Shown here one piece after another: positions 1,203 through 60,999 of a DNA stretch of 64,000 bases (within the stretch, counting starts at the first letter, position 1; the number at the start of each line of letters is the position of its first letter). The position numbers were made by a program, and so were the translations under genes. Below the pieces are notes generated by a model. That model had not been told where the DNA came from. It made no database searches and saw nothing but the letters and a program-made list of their open reading frames with translations. This DNA is from an archaeon. Lineage in GTDB: Archaea; Nanobdellota; Nanobdellia; Woesearchaeales; GW2011-AR9. Location of the stretch: contig JBDRMB010000029.1 in assembly GCA_043812455.1 (NCBI GenBank), positions 8,303 through 72,302 on the forward strand, read 5' to 3'.

Positions 1203-3289
1203 TGGTAGCTCCAGACTTATTAGGACCAGTAAGAACAGTTGAAGATCTCATTAAACAATTATTGCCTTCTGAGAAATATAAAAATATTCAATTTTGGAAA
1301 TCTGGTGGAACAAGAGATCTTTACATGGCAGAATGGGGTCCAGGCAATGAAAAAAGAATTATTAAAGTAGACAAAAGTGAATTAGAAAGTCCTAGAGCTC
1401 AAAGACATGTTGAAAGAGGTTATGATACCTCTAATGATATCAGAGCTTTATCTGAGATATCAAACCCCGAAAGACACAACTTGATGCGTTTGGTTGATTA
1501 TTTTGATTTCAGCAAAACGCAAGGAATTACTGTTGCTGTTGAAAGACATTTTGAATCTCAATCTTTGGAAGAAAGAGTTCAAGATAAACCTTTAAAACTT
1601 AAAGAATTTGAAACTGTATTTTCGCAAGTGATTGAAGGTGCAAATTATTTCATTAACACTTGTGGAATGTACCATCGTGATCTAAAAGCTTCTAATATCC
1701 TAGTTAATGATGAACTAGAAGTCAGAATTACAGATTTTGCAAACGCTTGTAAGAAAAATGAAGTTCAGAAAAAATATATGCCAACTGCTGGCGGTCATTG
1801 GGTAAGTGATCCATTAGTTTTCTTCAATGGTTCTGAAAATGAATACAGAGAAACTTCAGAAATTTATGCAATTGGAACAGAGATGTTTTATGCTTTGACA
1901 GGGGAACATATTTTTGAGTATGATGCAGATAATGGTACAGGGATTTCTTGTTTTACAGGTGAAAGTTTACTTGATAAGAATGGTATTGTTGACAGAACAA
2001 GACATAATGCTACTTTAGATTATGCTCTCAAAAGATTACCATGGAGAATCAGAAGGAAATATGGTGAAGTTATCAAAAAAAGTTTAAGTTTGGATGACGA
2101 AGTAAGATATTCAAAAATCAGTGAATTGAAAAAAGATTTTGAAAATGAGAAAAATATGCCAAGTTGGTATCAGTATTTAACTTCAAGACTTATATTATCC
2201 TCACTATTGATTACGACAACTGGTTTTGCAATTGGTGGTGTTGGAATAATGCATCACTTAGAAAAAAAACTTGAAGAAACTCAAGCAGTTGCAGAAGAAA
2301 ATGCCAAATATTATGTCAAGCCAGAATGGGATGGCTTAAATCTTGAAATTAATAACAATCTTACAGAACTTGATTTAAAATTGTACATTCTTAATCGCAA
2401 AGGTCTTGATAATGATAGAGATTATGATAATTATCCCGAGTCTCATTTCCTAAAAGTTAACCCTGGAGAAAAATTGTCAGGATCAATTTCTTTTAGAGAA
2501 GTGGCGGGAGCCGATAATGGTGCTCTTGGACAGTGCAATGTTTCATTCTTCACTAGAGTATACATCGAAGGTTTTCCTGCTCAAGAGGAGTTTTATGTTC
2601 ATACAAGAGATCATGATAATTCTATAATTTATGGTATGGGAGCTATGGGATTGTACCAATTTCCAAACATTATTATTCCTGAGAACTTGCCTGACGGAAC
2701 TTATAATTTAATCATAGAGGCTTACTCTCCAAAAGATGATTCATATTTAAATGATAATATTATTGATGGTATGGAGAACTTAAGGTTCGATGAGTTCAGT
2801 CAGATTATACTAAGAAATCGTGTTCCTATAGTTGTTGGAAATCCTGAAGCTTTTGTGTCTGCAGAATATATGCGTGGAGATCTTGGACCAGCTATCCAAA
2901 TAAATAATCTGATAAGGAATCGTTATCATACCCCTGAGAATCTTTCAGGTAACTTAACATTTGAATTAGATTTGCTTGGAACTGACTATCACAAAGAATT
3001 TACTCCTCAAGGTCATTATGGTTCTTTATGGTTACCAAAAAAAGACAATCCAGAAGAACGGATATTACAAATAGTCACTCAGGACTCTGAAGGAGAAATG
3101 ATTTATTATACTTTTATCCCCATGGTTAATGAAATCCTTAACGAAGAAACTAGATATTCGCAATGGCGGCCAGGAATCCCAGGACCAGAATTCTACGAAA
3201 CTACAATTAAGTTAGGTCAAGCGTTGCGAGGAGAATCACATGATGAGCCCAGAGAGGGGACTGTTGGCCAGGTAGAAGTTCCTAATTGA
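1202..3289 (+). CDS. receptor-type Ser/Thr protein kinase-like membrane protein (cytoplasmic kinase domain, one TM, extracellular C-terminal domain)
   Basis: 695 aa. It has a catalytic-loop motif YHRDLKASNILV (HRDLKxxN) and a DFG-like TDFANA. A hydrophobic segment LILSSLLITTTGFAIGGVGIM lies near residue 340, followed by about 340 aa of predicted extracellular sequence. Confidence 0.7.
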   Translation: MVAPDLLGPVRTVEDLIKQLLPSEKYKNIQFWKSGGTRDLYMAEWGPGNEKRIIKVDKSELESPRAQRHVERGYDTSNDIRALSEISNPERHNLMRLVDYFDFSKTQGITVAVERHFESQSLEERVQDKPLKLKEFETVFSQVIEGANYFINTCGMYHRDLKASNILVNDELEVRITDFANACKKNEVQKKYMPTAGGHWVSDPLVFFNGSENEYRETSEIYAIGTEMFYALTGEHIFEYDADNGTGISCFTGESLLDKNGIVDRTRHNATLDYALKRLPWRIRRKYGEVIKKSLSLDDEVRYSKISELKKDFENEKNMPSWYQYLTSRLILSSLLITTTGFAIGGVGIMHHLEKKLEETQAVAEENAKYYVKPEWDGLNLEINNNLTELDLKLYILNRKGLDNDRDYDNYPESHFLKVNPGEKLSGSISFREVAGADNGALGQCNVSFFTRVYIEGFPAQEEFYVHTRDHDNSIIYGMGAMGLYQFPNIIIPENLPDGTYNLIIEAYSPKDDSYLNDNIIDGMENLRFDEFSQIILRNRVPIVVGNPEAFVSAEYMRGDLGPAIQINNLIRNRYHTPENLSGNLTFELDLLGTDYHKEFTPQGHYGSLWLPKKDNPEERILQIVTQDSEGEMIYYTFIPMVNEILNEETRYSQWRPGIPGPEFYETTIKLGQALRGESHDEPREGTVGQVEVPN

Positions 3290-4141
3290 AGCCATTAGAT
3301 GGTATACCATTAATGCTTCTTTACCTGTTTTCTTTTTCAGAAGGTTATATCCATCCCAATACAACAACTCTTTTTCTTTTTCGTGAACTTTTGCCAAAAG
3401 ATGAATGTCTTTGTTAAGATAAGACTTTTTTATAATTTCAAATATTTCTTGATTATCTTCTAAAAGTTTAATAATTTCCTTTGAAATGGGTATTTTACTG
3501 GTTAACAATTTACTGTTCAAATGATAAATTTCCCTTTGCCCTTGATTAATCAAAGTCATGAATGCCCATAAGAATTCAGAATTGTCTGCCTGAATTCTTT
3601 TTTTTGAAATAACTCTCCTACAAAAATTGTCAAATCTTTGTATTCTTTCTTCAACCTCAATAAATTCGTCATTCTTTACGTTACCGTTAATTCTATCTTT
3701 TGTTATTTCAAACAGTTCAGTAATATTATATAATATTTTTTTGAAGATTGTATCAAATTGGTCTGCAGTCGGTTCAGTTATATTTTCTATTGTGCAATAT
3801 CCCTTAGCTTTCTTTACAATTTCAAAACCCAATAGTCTTGTTTTTGTCACTTCGTTAAGAATTTTGAATTGAGATGGTTTGTCGTAAAATACTTTGACTT
3901 TATCGTAACCTCTTCGATAAGTGTTTGTAATTAATGTTCTTATTGATGATTCTGTTAAGTTTACTAATTTAATTTCTATTTCTGATTTAGTTTCAATTCC
4001 ACTTATTGAAATGATAAGGTTATTTCCAACCGCTTCGATATCAATCTCTGAACCTTTTTGGGCTTTGTTTTCTTTAACCCATTTGCTAGGTAAGCTGATC
4101 ATTAAAGTGCTTGTTCCTTGTTTTACTAGCTTTCTTCGCAT
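3236..4141 (-). CDS. AbrB-domain / PhoU-domain transcriptional regulator (archaeal phosphate-uptake-regulator-like)
   Basis: 301 aa. The N-terminus MRRKLVKQGTSTLMISLPSKWVKENKAQKGSEIDIE is a swapped-hairpin AbrB fold, followed by a helical PhoU-like body. The 3' end overlaps the kinase gene by 54 nt in convergent orientation. Confidence 0.75.
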   Translation of the reverse strand: MRRKLVKQGTSTLMISLPSKWVKENKAQKGSEIDIEAVGNNLIISISGIETKSEIEIKLVNLTESSIRTLITNTYRRGYDKVKVFYDKPSQFKILNEVTKTRLLGFEIVKKAKGYCTIENITEPTADQFDTIFKKILYNITELFEITKDRINGNVKNDEFIEVEERIQRFDNFCRRVISKKRIQADNSEFLWAFMTLINQGQREIYHLNSKLLTSKIPISKEIIKLLEDNQEIFEIIKKSYLNKDIHLLAKVHEKEKELLYWDGYNLLKKKTGKEALMVYHLMASIRNFYLANSPLSGLIM

Positions 4142-8529: not shown

Positions 8530-8543
8530 TATATAGATTAACA

Positions 8544-8590
8544 TATTGGTTGCGGGAGGTGTTGCTCCTTACGGGAGGGCACCGCACTCG
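8544..8590. repeat. GC-rich structured element, copy a (GCGGGAGG..TGCTCCTTACGGGAGGGCACCGC), flanked by 7-nt direct repeats ATTAACA
   Basis: The local GC is far above the roughly one-third GC of its surroundings. ATTAACA occurs at 8537-8543 and again at 8591-8597. The core shares TGCTCCYTACGGGA with copies at 11686-11723 and 43603-43699. Confidence 0.35.
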
Positions 8591-8662
8591 ATTAACACTT
8601 AGAAAAAGCGAGTCCGCGCTACTCTCTAAGCAAATCATAACCAAAGATATTTAAACATCTAA

Positions 8663-8690: not shown

Positions 8691-9695
8691 GTGATTCCTA
8701 TGATAAATGTTGCAATTAATGGCTTTGGAAGAATCGGCCGGAACATTTTCCGAGCTGCATATAAAGATAAAAAAATCAATTTTGTGGCAGTAAACGACCT
8801 TACTGATCCAAGCTGCTTAGCATACTTACTAAAATACGATTCTGCCCATGGCAGATTTCCAGAAAAAGTTACCAGCACTCAAAGTTCTCTTAAAATAGGT
8901 AACAAAACTTTGAAAGTCTTTGCACAAAAAGATCCTGAACAATTACCTTGGAAAGAATTAAAGATTGATGTTGTAATTGAAAGTACTGGATTTTTCTTGA
9001 CAAAAGAACTAGCAAGCAAACATCTTAAAGCCGGAGCAAAAAAAGTCTTATTATCAGCACCTGCAAAAGATGATGCCATCAAAACTTTTGTGTATGGAGT
9101 TAATCACAAAAAATATAACAAAAAAACTGACCATATTGTAAGTAACGCTTCCTGTACAACTAACTGCTTAGCACCAGTAGCAATGGTCCTTGACAAAAAG
9201 TTTGGTATCACATCCGGACTCCTAACGACAACTCACGCTTATACCTCAACACAACGGATAGTTGACGGTCCAGCAAAGAAATTTAGAAGAGGACGAGCGG
9301 CTGGAGTAAATATGGTACCTACCACAACCGGAGCAGCAATTGCAACTACCAAAGTTTTGCCAAACTTAATCGGAAAAATTGATGGCCGAGCAATCAGAGT
9401 ACCAATAGTTGACGGTTCGATTTCAGACTTTACTTGCCAATTGAAAAAATCTGTAACTACAGAACAAGTTAATCAGGCATTCAAAGATGCTGCGATGAAA
9501 GAACTGAAAGGTGTACTTGAATATACTGAAGAGGAACTAGTTTCAAGCGACATTCTCAGCAACCCTTATTCCGCAATCCTAGACAGCAAATTGACCAAAG
9601 TAATTAACAAGAACATGGTAAAAGTTTTTGCTTGGTATGATAATGAATGGGGTTATAGTAATAGAATGATTGACATGGTTAAGTGGATTGCTTGA
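8691..9695 (+). CDS. gap: glyceraldehyde-3-phosphate dehydrogenase, class I (bacterial/eukaryotic type)
   Basis: INGFGRIGRNIFRAA is an NAD-binding motif. The active-site signature is SNASCTTNCLAP. The C-terminus WYDNEWGYSNRM is typical of class I GAPDH. Confidence 0.9.
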   Translation: MIPMINVAINGFGRIGRNIFRAAYKDKKINFVAVNDLTDPSCLAYLLKYDSAHGRFPEKVTSTQSSLKIGNKTLKVFAQKDPEQLPWKELKIDVVIESTGFFLTKELASKHLKAGAKKVLLSAPAKDDAIKTFVYGVNHKKYNKKTDHIVSNASCTTNCLAPVAMVLDKKFGITSGLLTTTHAYTSTQRIVDGPAKKFRRGRAAGVNMVPTTTGAAIATTKVLPNLIGKIDGRAIRVPIVDGSISDFTCQLKKSVTTEQVNQAFKDAAMKELKGVLEYTEEELVSSDILSNPYSAILDSKLTKVINKNMVKVFAWYDNEWGYSNRMIDMVKWIA

Positions 9696-11582
9696 TCATT
9701 CAAAAAATATTCTTTTTATTCCTTTTAATTTTAATAACCTATTAACAAGAACTTCAATAAGTTCCATTTCTTTAGGTACAATTACAAAAGAACATTCAGA
9801 ATCTTGACCAAGAAGTTTAGCTTTCGCTTCCCGGACTTCAAACTTAGCATTGACAATGGTATGCAACAAGTCTGCTAATAATCCTGACCGGTTTCCTGCA
9901 ACTACATAAAATTTGAAATTTTTGCTAAGAGTATCTTTCCAACTTACTTTGACCCATCGTTCTTCCTCTTTTTCAATTTGCTCACACTCTTTTTTATGTA
10001 CAGAAATCAATCTTCTTTTAGTAACCAAACCTACAATTTCATCACAAGGAACAGGATAACAACATCTCGCTAGAACACAAGAGGCCTGCTTAAATTCGGG
10101 GGAATATACCAAAGTTTCGTACTCTTCCATAACTTGTGGTTTTAAGATCCGATAATGTAATGCTGGTAATTTTTGATATTTCTTCACACCTTTCCTGATT
10201 TTTTGTTTAGCTCTAGATGAGATCACAAATTTAAGCCAGTTACGTCTTGGCAACTGTTTCTTAGAAGTTAAGACTTCAATAACATCCCCTTTTTTTAATT
10301 GAGTACGTAACGGAACAAACTTACCATTTACATTAGCTCCGACAGTACGATTACCTACTTCTTCATGTACAATGTACGCAAAATCTAATACCGTTGCTCC
10401 CAACGGCAAGTATTTAACGTCACCTTTAGGGGTATAACAATAAATCTGATCATTGAAAACGTCAATCTTAACATTTTCCAGAAATTCCCTTGCACTGGCA
10501 TCTTTTTGAAGGCTGAGGATATCCTTCATCCACTCCATTCGTTTCTCAAAATCAAAATCAGATTTCAGACCTTTATATCTCCAGTGTGCAGCCAAACCTT
10601 CTTCTGCAATATCATCCATTTCTTTAGTTCTGATCTGTACTTCTAAGAACTTGTTACCTTTCCATTTCAGTGCAGTATGGATTGACTGATAACCGTTAGG
10701 TTTTGGATGAGAGATGTAATCTTTTAATCTTCCTTCAATCGGTTCAAAATTTTCGTGCAGAAAACCAAGTACTGCATAACAATCATTTATTGTTTTTACA
10801 ACTACTCTTATCCCTAAAAAATCATAAATGTCCTGTAACCGTTTTCCTTTCTTGACAACTTTTTTGTAAATACTGTAAATATGTTTAGACCTTCCTTTGA
10901 CGTCAATAAATTCAACATTTTTCAAGGATTTAATCTTATCAATAGCTTCATTAACATCATCATCTCGTTCTTCTCGTGAAGTTTCTAAAAAATCAGCAAT
11001 CTCTTGAAATTTTTTTCGATTGATTGCTTTGAAAGCCAGATCTTCCAGCTCAGTCCTGATTCTTTCCATCCCTAGACGATAAGCTAACGGAGCATAAATG
11101 TCAAGAACTTCTTGAGAAATTCTGATTTGTTCATCTTTAGGTAAGGCATCAATATCTCTTTGATTATCTAACTTATCAGCAAGTTTAATGAAAATAACTC
11201 GGACATCGTTCACTGTTGCCAAAAGCACTTTTCTAATCGTTTCTGCAGTAAGTTTAATGTTTCTTTTCCTGATGGTAGTTATTTCATCCACACCTTTAAC
11301 TAAAGAAAGAACATCCTGACCAAACTTTTCTTTAATTTCCTGATCGGTTTTATACTTACTTGTCCCATGTATGATTGCTGCCAAGATAAGTTCAGGAGCA
11401 GCACCATTTTCTGCTAATATTTTCGCTACGCGCAAACTATGATCAAAATAATCATCTCCAGCCAATCTTTTTTTATCGCTTAAGATTTCTCTAGCAAAAA
11501 TAATTCCTTCTTCAAACTTAGTGATATCTTTATCGGAATAATCTTTTGTGTCCAGAAATCGAAAGAATGATTGAATATCCAT
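9696..11582 (-). CDS. bifunctional (p)ppGpp synthetase/hydrolase, RelA/SpoT homologue
   Basis: 628 aa. The HD hydrolase region is HSLRVAKILA. The synthetase motifs are DFLGIRVVVKTINDCYAVLGFLH and DYISHPKPNGYQSIHTAL. A TGS-like region (VYSPKGDVKYLPLGATVLDFAY) follows. Confidence 0.85.
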   Translation of the reverse strand: MDIQSFFRFLDTKDYSDKDITKFEEGIIFAREILSDKKRLAGDDYFDHSLRVAKILAENGAAPELILAAIIHGTSKYKTDQEIKEKFGQDVLSLVKGVDEITTIRKRNIKLTAETIRKVLLATVNDVRVIFIKLADKLDNQRDIDALPKDEQIRISQEVLDIYAPLAYRLGMERIRTELEDLAFKAINRKKFQEIADFLETSREERDDDVNEAIDKIKSLKNVEFIDVKGRSKHIYSIYKKVVKKGKRLQDIYDFLGIRVVVKTINDCYAVLGFLHENFEPIEGRLKDYISHPKPNGYQSIHTALKWKGNKFLEVQIRTKEMDDIAEEGLAAHWRYKGLKSDFDFEKRMEWMKDILSLQKDASAREFLENVKIDVFNDQIYCYTPKGDVKYLPLGATVLDFAYIVHEEVGNRTVGANVNGKFVPLRTQLKKGDVIEVLTSKKQLPRRNWLKFVISSRAKQKIRKGVKKYQKLPALHYRILKPQVMEEYETLVYSPEFKQASCVLARCCYPVPCDEIVGLVTKRRLISVHKKECEQIEKEEERWVKVSWKDTLSKNFKFYVVAGNRSGLLADLLHTIVNAKFEVREAKAKLLGQDSECSFVIVPKEMELIEVLVNRLLKLKGIKRIFFE

Positions 11583-11631
11583 AACAAGAGTTATTGGCTT
11601 AGATAATAAAAAACTTTCTCAAAGTGTGGGT

Positions 11632-11785
11632 GTGTTCCAAGAGTCCACCAGCATCAGTCAAAATGCCTTCCAATTAAACATTAAGTGCGTCGCGAGGGGA
11701 TGCTCCCTACGGGAACGCAGCACAAACAACTTAAGAAGTAAGCATTTTGAAGCTGGTGGTCGAGCGCCAGCGAGATTTGGAACAC
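11632..11785. ncRNA. candidate structured RNA containing GC-rich element copy b; long-range helices GUGUUCCAA/UUGGAACAC and CCACCAGC/GCUGGUGG enclose the core GUGCGUCGCGAGGGGAUGCUCCCUACGGGAACGCAGCAC
   Basis: A perfect 9-bp complement pairs 11632-11640 with 11777-11785. A perfect 8-bp complement pairs 11645-11652 with 11752-11759. The GC-rich hairpin core lies at 11686-11723, in a divergent intergenic region. Strand and identity are unknown. Confidence 0.35.
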
Positions 11786-11880
11786 ATCCGTTAAGTGCGA
11801 AAGTTTTAAATACAATTTACCTAAAGAACTACTTCAAAGTGGGAACTTATAAGTTAAAATTAAGAAATCAGCAAGAAGGT

Positions 11881-27946: not shown

Positions 27947-29089
27947 TCACCCCACTACAAGGTTAATTAATTTGTTTTGTTTTCTGTCTAATGAATATCC
28001 AATGTATTTATAAAATTTTGTGAGGCTACCTTTCCTAGCAATATGTAAATCAAAGCAGAGACTGTATCTTCCAGCATGTGTTCTACTCAAGCGACCTGCA
28101 AAAATTCTGTTTTTAATATCAAGTTCCTTAAGAATTTTGGATTCTCCTTGCAAAAGTTTAGGAGCTTTATTTAACTCACTCAGTAACTTTTTATCTTCAA
28201 TTAGTCCTGATGCTTTCTTGATTGTAATAACCTTGGTTATATGTCCTGTAGGGAATTTGTTAATCAACATAAACTTATCAAGCAGTTCTAATTCTTTTAT
28301 TTGTTTTTTAGTTAAATTATTTAGATGCCTATAACGCGAAAGTGTGATATACCCATAATTTCCTTTCTTATCTTTGTACACTGAAGATTCATCATCAAAC
28401 GCTGCCTTCAAGTAATTCGCTTTCATTTCTTTAGTTCCTTTCTTTATCAACCAAGGTACTTCACCATCAACTGTCGCTTTTCTTCCAGAAATTGCTCCAA
28501 CTCTTAATAAGGACTCACCAATTATAGATGAGCCAATTCTAAGCAGAATACAATTTCTTACAAATTCTTTTTGTATGTGAACCTCGCCAAATAATTTATT
28601 TATTATTTTTATAAAATTCTCTGCAGATTGCTCCTCACCAGCAGCATATTTTGTTCTAAATTTGTTTCTTGCTTTCTTATCTTTGAAAATGCAACCATCA
28701 GAAACAATTAATCCTAAAAGATAAGCACCATCTTCATTGTTGAGGTTTATTGGAAATTTTGGATTTTTTATAGAAATAACTTTCCCTTTTTTAGTCATCA
28801 AGATTTTATCATTCATATAATTATAATTAATCCCTAAGTAATCCAACAATTTCTTAAGTTTCATAACAGAAACCATATTAACACCTTTATTGTTTATCAG
28901 ATTATAAAATGTGGGACTACTCAAGTTCAATTCATTACAAAGCAGAGACAGGTTACCAGCTTTTTTAATTCCTTTTAGGATTAATTTTTCTAGTAGATCA
29001 TCTTTTAGTTCAAATAGAAATGTATCTTTAAGTTGATACCAATGAGTTTCCCAATGAGGGATTGCCAAATCTTCATTAATTGAATTCAT
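27947..29089 (-). CDS. LAGLIDADG-family (double-motif) homing-endonuclease-like protein with N-terminal HTH-like region
   Basis: The two motifs are [14 protein letters not shown] and [14 protein letters not shown] (LAGLIDADG-like), about 100 aa apart. N-terminal [24 protein letters not shown] resembles an HTH. The start is trimmed to ATG 29089, preceded by SD GGAGGT. The stop lies 2 nt before the cysS ATG. Confidence 0.6.
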
Positions 29090-29098
29090 TTTTATTAC

Positions 29099-29128
29099 CT
29101 CCAAGTTTCCACCTACTTAAACTTGGAG
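29099..29128 (-). promoter_or_regulatory. 10-bp perfect inverted repeat (CTCCAAGTTT / AAACTTGGAG) whose 3' arm contains the SD of the LAGLIDADG gene
   Basis: The arms are 29099-29108 and 29119-29128 with a 10-nt loop. The SD GGAGGT (minus strand) lies at 29097-29102. The predicted mRNA hairpin would occlude the ribosome-binding site. Confidence 0.3.
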
Positions 29129-43491: not shown

Positions 43492-43602
43492 CTTCAAGGT
43501 AAAATAAGTACTCTCTGATATATAAATATTGCTTTTCTTGAGGCACCGTAGAATTGCTTTTTGCATCCAAAGGTCAAAACTTTTTCTATAAACATAATCA
43601 GG

Positions 43603-43699
43603 CTCGTCGCGAGGGGTTGCCCCATACATGAAAATCAAAAACTATTGATTTTCAGTACTGAAATTAAGTAGTTTCTTAATTTCATGTACGGGAACGCAG
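43603..43699. repeat. GC-rich structured element, copy c, interrupted by a 62-nt AT-rich insertion (43628-43689) bounded by a 9-bp inverted repeat TACATGAAA/TTTCATGTA and containing three internal hairpins
   Basis: The core halves CTCGTCGCGAGGGGTTGCCCCATAC and GGGAACGCAG are collinear with copy b at 11686-11720. The insert has hairpins AATCAA-aaacta-TTGATT, TTCAG-ta-CTGAA and ATTAAG-tagttt-CTTAAT inside a closing stem, giving a cloverleaf-like fold. Confidence 0.35.
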
Positions 43700-43853
43700 A
43701 TCTATTGATAAAATATTGAAAGTTTTGAAGATGCATTTAGCAATTCTACAGAGCCTTTTCTTTAGAAGAGCTAAAAAGTTAGCATCCTGAGGTCACAAAA
43801 CAAGAAAAATTAAATAAAGCAACAGATAAACTAACTATAAGCACAAACCAAAA

Positions 43854-60096: not shown

Positions 60097-60999
60097 ATGA
60101 AAAGAAAAATTGTCAAACTCGGACCTGCGACATTAGTAGTCAGTTTACCAAGCAAGTGGGTAAGAAAAATTAATGTTAAAGTGGGAGATGAAGTAGAATT
60201 AGAAGAAAGAGACGATGGTCTGTTAATTAGTCCAGAAAGAACTAGTAGAACGATGAAAGACAATTTAGAATTCATTAAGCCAAATCGCTTAATGCGCAGA
60301 ATTGTTGCAGCTAAATATATGAAAGGTGCTGATGAGATTGATATTAAAGTTGGATCGACAGCAATCTCAAGAGAAATCCAGAAAAGAGTTGATCAAATGA
60401 TTGGTATGGAAATTGTTGATCAATCAAAAGATAAACTGCTAATTAAAAGTCTTGGGATCAGCGAAGAAGATAATATTGAAACAATCTCTAAAAGAATATT
60501 ATATTTACTCCAATCAATTTCTGATGAAAGTCTTAATGCCATTAAAAACAGAGAGACTGATTTGGAATATCTGAAAGATATGGAACTTAACGTTAACAAG
60601 TTTTCAGAATATTGTTTTCGATTATTAAATAAGAAAGGACATCCTCAACCGAGCAAAACTGCTAGTTTTTATTGCAGTTTATTTTTGTTAGAAGAACTGG
60701 CCGATGAATACAAGAAACTTATCGATCACATTAATGATAACAAGGTTAAATTAAATAATAAATTAACTGATATTTATGCTAAAATTAATTCTTATCAAAA
60801 AAGCATGAACAAGATCTTTCTTAAATACAATGAAGAGAAAGCATTATCTTTAGCCAAAGAATATGATATTATTTCTAAAGATATTGAACTTGAACTGAAG
60901 AAGACCAAATCCGTTAAGGAAGCAATTGTCTTAAAAACTTTTGAAAACATTTCCCATATCATAATTAAGATCATGAATGAGTTCATGAATATCAATTAA
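60097..60999 (+). CDS. AbrB-domain / PhoU-domain transcriptional regulator, second copy
   Basis: The N-terminus MKRKIVKLGPATLVVSLPSKWVRKINVKVGDEVELEE is a swapped-hairpin, with a helical PhoU-like remainder. It is a paralogue of 3236..4141. Confidence 0.75.
   Translation: MKRKIVKLGPATLVVSLPSKWVRKINVKVGDEVELEERDDGLLISPERTSRTMKDNLEFIKPNRLMRRIVAAKYMKGADEIDIKVGSTAISREIQKRVDQMIGMEIVDQSKDKLLIKSLGISEEDNIETISKRILYLLQSISDESLNAIKNRETDLEYLKDMELNVNKFSEYCFRLLNKKGHPQPSKTASFYCSLFLLEELADEYKKLIDHINDNKVKLNNKLTDIYAKINSYQKSMNKIFLKYNEEKALSLAKEYDIISKDIELELKKTKSVKEAIVLKTFENISHIIIKIMNEFMNIN

Follow-up and report, generated by a model that had tools for sequence, protein, structure and literature searches.

The window, by which we mean the whole 64,000-nucleotide stretch of DNA analysed here, includes genes for pelota, TrmB and an archaeal-type PheRS, and the best relatives of its pelota are labelled Woesearchaeota or Nanoarchaeota, which places the source organism among the DPANN archaea. 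It holds three copies of a GC-rich element, which we call a, b and c. Copies a and b border a pair of genes (8691–9695 and 9696–11582) read, from their translations only, as a bacterial-type GAPDH (motif SNASCTTNCLAP) and a long RelA/SpoT-like protein; both are likely to be bacterial acquisitions. A membrane-protein gene and pelota are transcribed divergently, and copy c lies between their promoters; no promoter of its own is evident. Elsewhere in the window, a free-standing 385-aa ORF on the minus strand (27947–29104) adjoins the cysteinyl-tRNA synthetase gene and gives a weak LAGLIDADG-like domain match (E 1.9e-5); it is possibly the relic of a homing endonuclease. A further two ORFs, each about 300 aa long (3236–4141 and 60097–60999), have an N-terminal MazE/AbrB-type (SpoVT-AbrB) domain (E 4.5e-7 and 9.9e-11, respectively) and appear to be paralogous putative DNA-binding proteins.

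The features of the three copies, in window coordinates, are as follows.

About 8544 to 8589, plus strand: copy a, a diverged 46-nt solo core (TGCGGGAGGTGTTGCTCCTTACGGGAGGGCACCGCA) with no long arms and with the direct repeat GATTAACA on either side
11628 to 11789, plus strand: copy b, a MITE of 162 bp with no interruption, equal in length to the class-1 copies, with its core at 11686 to 11722 and the ends GGGTGTGTTCCAA and TTGGAACACATCC
43533 to 43541, no strand: left copy of a 9-bp target-site duplication (TTTTCTTGA), matching 43756 to 43764 at 8 of 9 positions and abutting the GGC terminus
43542 to 43755, plus strand: copy c, the host foldback MITE, 214 bp (152 bp without the insert), with the ends GGC...GCC, a 27-nt terminal inverted repeat and an inner stem
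43605 to 43626, plus strand: 5' part of the conserved GC-rich core, through the target TA (CGTCGCGAGGGGTTGCCCCATA), collinear with copy b and with 47 uninterrupted cores
43625 to 43657, plus strand: hairpin module 1, TAC-A-TGAAAATCAA / AAACTA / TTGATTTTCA-GTA, with a 10-bp perfect stem, seen in the folds and in covariation
43627 to 43686, no strand: 60-bp two-hairpin palindromic element, CATGAAA...TTTCATG, belonging to a metagenome family; the 64-nt unit that includes the TAs is identical in locus L117
43656 to 43688, minus strand: hairpin module 2, the module in inverted orientation, whose stem (TTAAG/CTTAA) differs from that of module 1 and is self-compensated; it is seen in the stem, in a minus-strand match to the unit pattern and in covariation
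43687 to 43688, no strand: second copy of the TA flanking the insert (the first is at 43625 to 43626); uninterrupted cores have one TA, in CCNTACGGG
43689 to 43699, plus strand: 3' part of the GC-rich core (CGGGAACGCAG)
43756 to 43764, no strand: right copy of the 9-bp target-site duplication of the host MITE (TTTTCTTTA), a direct repeat
43765 to 43797, plus strand: remnant like the 5' arm of a second MITE (GAAGAGCTAAAAAGTTAGCATCCTGAGGTCAC), from a by-eye comparison with the arm GGTTAGCATCCTCAGGTCAAAA of L117

The extra bases of copy c

A reading of the sequence alone had held that copy c is collinear with copy b apart from 62 additional nucleotides, and direct inspection of both sequences bears this out. 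Copy c (43605–43699) reads CGTCGCGAGGGGTTGCCCCATAC, then 62 nt, then GGGAACGCAG, and copy b (11688–11720) reads CGTCGCGAGGGGATGCTCCCTACGGGAACGCAG with no interruption, so providing an in-window 'empty site' reference. The extra bases start right after ...CCCCATAC and occupy 43628–43689. The 12-mer CGTCGCGAGGGG occurs exactly twice in the window; with up to two mismatches it is found three times, against 0.18 expected. The 9-bp inverted repeat said to bound the insert, TACATGAAA (43625–43633) and TTTCATGTA (43680–43688), is indeed perfect, but it is merely the outermost stretch of a 36-nt palindrome that is 81% complementary and consists of one hairpin module present twice, in inverted orientation. 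By its most symmetrical parse the insert is best read as a 60-bp element with perfect terminal inverted repeats (CATGAAA/TTTCATG) and a duplicated TA at either side, an arrangement that would look the same if the element brought one TA of its own and inserted 3' of an existing TA.

Folded either as RNA or as DNA, the insert forms two adjacent hairpins of 10 perfect base pairs each (43629–43654 and 43659–43684), and the fold of the 64-nt unit is far better than that of shuffled sequences (z −6.9 as RNA and −7.6 as DNA; 0 of 200 shuffles as good). The three hairpins closing into a cloverleaf that had been proposed for it are not recovered: the fold has two, and the minimum free energy structure is not a closed cloverleaf. 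Copy c as a whole folds into a rod-like structure (z −6.5 as RNA, −7.6 as DNA) with the core at its apex, and copy b into a long rod (z −4.6), again with the core at the apex. In a consensus fold of 18 diverse cores the sole supported helix is CCN-UAC-GGG, whose base shows U-A to C-G covariation and in which UAC is the triloop of a CCN/GGG hairpin. The target TA is thus predicted to sit in the triloop at the very apex of the host, and the original placement of the insert at the hairpin loop was a reasonable one. The central GTAC of the hairpin pair is the position equivalent to this apex triloop. For the host, the 60-bp insert has no known role and simply splits the core hairpin. A K-turn in the core (CGU-CGC-GA ... 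GA-ACG) was considered and set aside: on paper it fits b- and c-type cores, but a-type cores do not fit.

The GC-rich element as the centre of a foldback MITE family

A scan with TCGCGAGGGGNTGCNCCNTAC, using one genome per species, returned 53 loci. Six are non-archaeal, high-GC chance matches without the 3' half, and the other 47 come from Woesearchaeota/Nanoarchaeota-type MAGs, some of them mislabelled as Methanosarcinales. In all 47 archaeal reference-genome cores TAC runs straight into GGGAAC, a continuity that the search pattern did not demand, and the insertion is therefore the derived state. The cores are carried by a family of non-coding foldback MITEs of about 160 bp with GGC...GCC ends and 9-bp target duplications, present at up to about 10 copies per genome and often located at contig ends. 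In one MAG, contigs are broken at copies that measure 163 bp, are nearly identical, have 17-bp terminal inverted repeats (GGCTAATATGAAACCCT) and lie in differing flanks. Among the class-1 copies the 9-bp duplication matches at 7 or more of its nine positions in 14 of 17 cases and is perfect in eight. In other subfamilies the arms are unrelated, while the foldback shape, the GTCRAAA/TTTYGAAG inner stem and the 35-nt core are all retained; the shared core despite unrelated arms identifies the GC-rich element as the strongly conserved centre of a foldback MITE family of the Woesearchaeota and Nanoarchaeota.

Copy c is itself an insertion, since its site is empty in the closest relatives. In these (L114–L116, pelota 91% identical) the gene order is kept and ...ATATTGCTGTATTGA joins CCAATAAACAAG... 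directly, with no MITE, and the orthologous site of L118–L122 (pelota about 70% identical) likewise lacks one. In L117 (pelota 79% identical) a MITE is present at the same place upstream of pelota. The window and L117 share the 64-nt insert without a single difference (100% identity), about five positions of the core separate them, and by eye their host arms are only about 50–60% alike. The remnant to the right of copy c (43765–43797) appears to be what is left of a second MITE that was mostly deleted, and since it resembles the 5' arm of the L117 MITE, the MITEs of the window and of L117 may be neighbours, not orthologues. The pair has the same orientation at all eight core-type sites. This shared orientation, together with the identity to L117, fits two histories: an active lineage may have inserted time and again at this site with this orientation, or a single old insertion may have been conserved better than its host. 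The latter would hint at a function.

Copy a is flanked by an exact 8-bp direct repeat, GATTAACA, at 8536–8543 and 8590–8597. This arrangement suggests that the core plus a short closing stem is possibly a small insertable unit itself. In metagenomes, similar a-type cores (L064, L101 and L112) are interrupted at the same TA by the hairpin pair.

Among known systems, the host element is most like MITEs of the IS5 family, IS903 group, whose signature is a 9-bp duplication together with GGC termini. Both are present in the host element (in copy c the duplication matches at 8 of 9 positions). It differs from IS903-group MITEs in that it folds back nearly perfectly over its full length around a GC-rich centre of 35 nt, and in that this centre is conserved across subfamilies with unrelated arms. 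No transposase-bearing parent was found in the fetched loci, where the class-1 terminal repeats enclose MITE-sized elements only and none surrounds a longer, transposase-sized element. Viral contigs gave no match to the core and none to the insert. We also considered a stand-alone sRNA gene with its own promoter. By eye, a TATA-like box lies about 20–25 nt upstream of several copies, but in a count over 39 MITE copies, which is crude because end-finding is noisy, boxes were found at two left and at five mirrored right flanks, and the idea was dropped.

Several other sequence features of these MITEs were observed. The reference-genome copy L021 (about 2013–2180) has a core with CTCC replacing GCAG after GGGAAC, and its 3' arm of about 65 nt, where about 20 nt is usual, is another insertion or rearrangement within this MITE family. 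An asymmetric motif with two AGCG repeats is confined to the 3' arm, near the right end, and recurs in subfamilies with unrelated arms: it reads TCGAGCGCCAGCGAGA in copy b (11760–11775), GGCGAGCGAAGCGAGAGGG in class-1 copies (L015 and L022) and GAGTGAGCGAAGCGAACGG in the B-type (L068). GCGAG-like words recur on one strand, in this motif and in GCGAGGGG of the core, and the AGCG- and GCGAG-like words may mark a candidate protein-binding site. ATGAAA is common to the class-1 MITE terminus GGCTAATATGAAACCC (for example in L015) and to the terminus of the hairpin pair at 43625–43633; since one makes a 9-bp target duplication and the other duplicates TA, the match is probably coincidental.

The hairpin pair at independent loci

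A second copy of the insert was found neither elsewhere in the window nor in the 53 reference-genome loci. Metagenomes were searched with a pattern for one module, TACATGAAA-N5-AAACTA-N5-TTTCAGT, which fixes TAC, GAAA, the AAACTA loop and TTTCAGT. Sixty metagenome loci match, of which by a rough hand estimate a few would be chance matches, and nearly every match is followed by a second, inverted module, though the pattern did not ask for one. The insert is therefore found independently of copy c, the check that the sequence-only reading had called for. Among 58 arrays, 54 have two units and measure 62–65 nt, almost always 64 nt; the remaining four have four units (about 125 nt) and consist of one pair set in the central TA of a second, and the second also occurs on its own (for example L066 versus L067). 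All 53 complete copies have TA at both sides, and this is the only invariant feature of the flanks. The pairs comprise 39 distinct sequences, assembled from 49 distinct modules that have been recombined among pairs.

From the 53 complete copies 32 empty sites were reconstructed, only eight of them GC-core-like and 24 not. TAC is present on one strand at 21 of the 32 sites and on neither strand at 11. In each of L068, L091 and L110, a single contig bears a host element in both filled and empty form, and L087 and L076 together show the same contrast; for such other host elements the two alleles differ by exactly TA plus 60–62 nt, and a single TA is present in uninterrupted cores and in empty B-type and D-type host elements. 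Filled and empty cores are both present in L072 and L096, and L108 holds a class-1 MITE of 228 bp, that is, 164 + 64. The pair therefore occupies many unrelated sites, and its 60 bp have no coding capacity. At a TA, it also adjoins the central GC-rich hairpin of other small foldback families (...GCGTAA-TA-CCCCACAGCTCTGCTGTGG...), namely the B-type (L066, L068, L087, L091 and others), the C-type (L060 and L071) and the D-type (L076 and L092), which indicates that small foldback elements centred on a GC hairpin are diverse in these groundwater archaea. Loci L054–L113 and L117 derive from groundwater sites.

Forty modules were aligned to the scheme TAC / bulged A / 10-bp stem / 6-nt loop / stem / GTA. 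In this alignment pairing holds in 98.7% of cells and drops to about 40% once the partners are shifted by 1–3 columns; double compensatory changes occur in 7 of 13 pairs, and double-change cells number 103 against 33 in shuffles, figures to be read with the caveat that the search pattern partly fixed one module per match. Complementarity is preserved inside each module and not across the two modules of a pair, and the bulged A is conserved. This suggests that each arm must matter as a hairpin in single-stranded nucleic acid.

Two explanations had been put forward for the 62 extra bases, and the evidence now favours one of them strongly. With 60 independent loci, a near-constant length of 64 nt, TA bounds, filled and empty alleles and self-nesting, the bases are very probably a nested insertion of a second miniature mobile element into the host MITE. 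The other explanation was an archaeal intron of the bulge-helix-bulge (BHB) type, in which a splicing endonuclease would cut the 62 nt from a transcript of the structured core. Such introns are likewise short inserts in GC-rich, hairpin-forming archaeal sequence with uninterrupted paralogues, and the archaeal host (pelota, TrmB and archaeal-type PheRS), the coexistence of interrupted and uninterrupted versions of one element and the position of the insert within a predicted hairpin loop all agree with the idea. The junctions do not. We scored the BHB geometry (outer helix, 4-bp helix, 3-nt bulge cut after its second base) at both junctions in all four equivalent registers, and none yields a 3-4-3 bulge-helix-bulge; the best register pairs 3 of 4 central and 3 of 6 inner positions with two contiguous outer pairs, and enforcing it gives −15.9 kcal/mol against −32.3 kcal/mol for the minimum free energy structure, a cost of about 16 kcal/mol. 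The host is itself a transposon with target duplications and not a tRNA, rRNA or other RNA gene: ARAGORN found no tRNA gene in the window, and Rfam gave no match in the window at gathering score, with only a chance-level hit to mir-3140 (E 4.6) over the site. Moreover, the same insert is present in multiple copies, within its own copies and in flanks that are unable to pair together; since these flanks are mutually unrelated, a conserved exon-intron pairing is impossible. We give the intron reading almost no credence. As identities for the element, a tRNA or split tRNA was dropped on the ARAGORN result, and the known RNA families (ribozymes, SRP, RNase P, snoRNAs and riboswitches) on Rfam matches at chance level (E up to 5).

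A further possibility is that the core encodes a functional structured RNA, or a single-stranded DNA signal, of which the hairpin pair is an optional expansion arm, inherited with the core and under selection. The strong compensatory evolution of the hairpins would be expected of such an arm, as would the complete identity of the insert between the window and L117 despite their diverged host arms, and the fact that eight diverged core types hold the pair at one and the same TA and with one orientation. Against this reading, 24 of the 32 sites are not core-like, unrelated host elements show filled and empty alleles, pairs nest within pairs, and the 47 b-type reference cores are without exception devoid of a pair. 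The setting of copy c, between two divergent promoters and with none evident of its own, and the negative outcome of the crude promoter-box count also speak against a functional RNA. We consider an expansion arm very improbable.

In the nested insertion that we favour, the MITE of copy c came first, between the divergent promoters. A 60-bp non-autonomous element made of two inverted hairpin modules of about 30 nt that meet at a central GTAC later inserted at the TA within the UAC triloop that tips the core; a transposase presumably encoded elsewhere would have mobilised it in trans. As no autonomous parent or transposase was found, we infer this mobility from the sequence pattern only.

Candidate enzymes and related systems

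We looked for the responsible enzyme both in the window and around the other copies. No transposase domain was detected among the 40 window ORFs scanned, no transposase recurs near the copies (the recurring ORF clusters are all housekeeping genes), and neither the window nor the approximately 0.8 Mb of fetched loci contains an autonomous partner with matching ends. A cut-and-paste DDE enzyme of the Tc1/IS630 type, which we propose tentatively as the possible mover, would best account for a target limited to TA, for its duplication, for the two-fold symmetry and for the preference for TAs at palindrome centres. The compensatory evolution within modules and the conserved bulged A point to an alternative, an enzyme that recognises structure as in REP/REPIN systems. 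Here the insertion would still be nested, but the mover would be a single-strand HUH/tyrosine enzyme that recognises hairpins (REP-RAYT or IS200/IS605-like), and the pair would be an archaeal analogue of a REPIN. Like a REPIN, the pair consists of two inverted modules, each an imperfect palindrome, and can form one long or two short hairpins; its covariation is confined to the modules, the modules are shuffled among pairs, and the targets are TAs at hairpin tips or palindrome centres. The flanks, however, are invariant only at TA, with TAC on neither strand at 11 of the 32 sites, whereas enzymes of the IS200/IS605 type have a target of 4–5 nt. Nor is there a GTAG or CGTC tag, and no Y1 transposase was seen near any copy. 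Such a mover is in our view rather unlikely, and we know of no report of RAYTs in archaea. A fuller version of the idea, which we regard as quite doubtful, is that the two-hairpin element is an archaeal counterpart of the REPIN, a replicator that is recognised as single-stranded hairpins and homes to TAs at the tips of other hairpins, with the core as its preferred landing pad or as a carried single-stranded DNA or RNA signal. If so, the locus would be a three-level 'Russian doll' of palindromes, in which the foldback MITE holds the GC-rich core, the core a hairpin pair, and the pair a second pair.

MITEs of the Tc1/mariner-IS630 type that duplicate TA (Stowaway, Correia, ERIC/MITEEc1 and pithovirus M1/M2) are likewise non-coding, palindromic, multi-copy, flanked by TA and found inserted in other repeats, and TA is the duplicated target here as well. 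In pithovirus, adjacent M1 and M2 units have a TA in common (PMC10664404), as do the modules of the hairpin pair. The pair differs from these MITEs in being far smaller (60 bp), in that each end is a hairpin of its own with compensatory evolution, in its DPANN archaeal host, and in that no parent IS630-like element was found in the fetched loci.

Bacterial REPINs are inverted doublets of REPs mobilised by RAYTs, and the organisation of REPs and their dimers has been described (PMC3116915, PMC3733652). REPINs and the hairpin pair are alike in consisting of two inverted short imperfect palindromes, in lying in intergenic DNA, in having many stem and loop variants and in forming dimers of unlike units (PMC3116915, PMC3733652); in the pair, too, the unit is a short imperfect palindrome and the mobile form an inverted doublet. 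REPs are defined by an unpaired GTAG or CGTC tag at one end (PMC3733652), whereas the units described here start with TAC and end with GTA, both of them paired, so that the conserved boundary is the palindromic GTAC. The pair differs further in its duplicated TA and archaeal host, and no RAYT gene lies near any of its copies in the fetched loci. As the core starts with CGTC, we also considered an identity with CGTC-tagged REPs; these families have 8–9-bp stems that start with A-T pairs, loops of 4–5 nt and CCA tails (PMC3733652), and the core does not resemble them.

Palindrome-associated elements derived from IS200/IS605 (PATEs) are also small, non-coding and built of hairpins. They make no duplication, use a fixed target of 4–5 nt and have left and right hairpins in the same orientation, whereas in the pair the hairpins are inverted, and TA alone is fixed while the flanks beyond it vary. 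A woesearchaeal genome is among the most MITE-dense of archaeal genomes, and neither of the two repeat families is described there (PMC11602168). In the literature searched we found no description of a foldback MITE with an invariant 35-nt core or of the 60-bp hairpin pair.

The result removes a false lead, in that what seemed a GC-rich island with an 'intron' in an AT-rich DPANN genome is two nested non-coding transposons and no split RNA gene. It also illustrates that mobile DNA hairpins can produce strong compensatory base-pair evolution, and covariation alone should therefore not count as evidence of a functional RNA. Its main use is this corrected annotation and the caution on covariation; it is not a new kind of system. 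For the small genomes of the Woesearchaeota and Nanoarchaeota, it documents two repeat families, the foldback MITE with its invariant 35-nt core and the 60-bp hairpin pair, whose filled and empty alleles are possible strain markers and may offer a handle on the transposases responsible.
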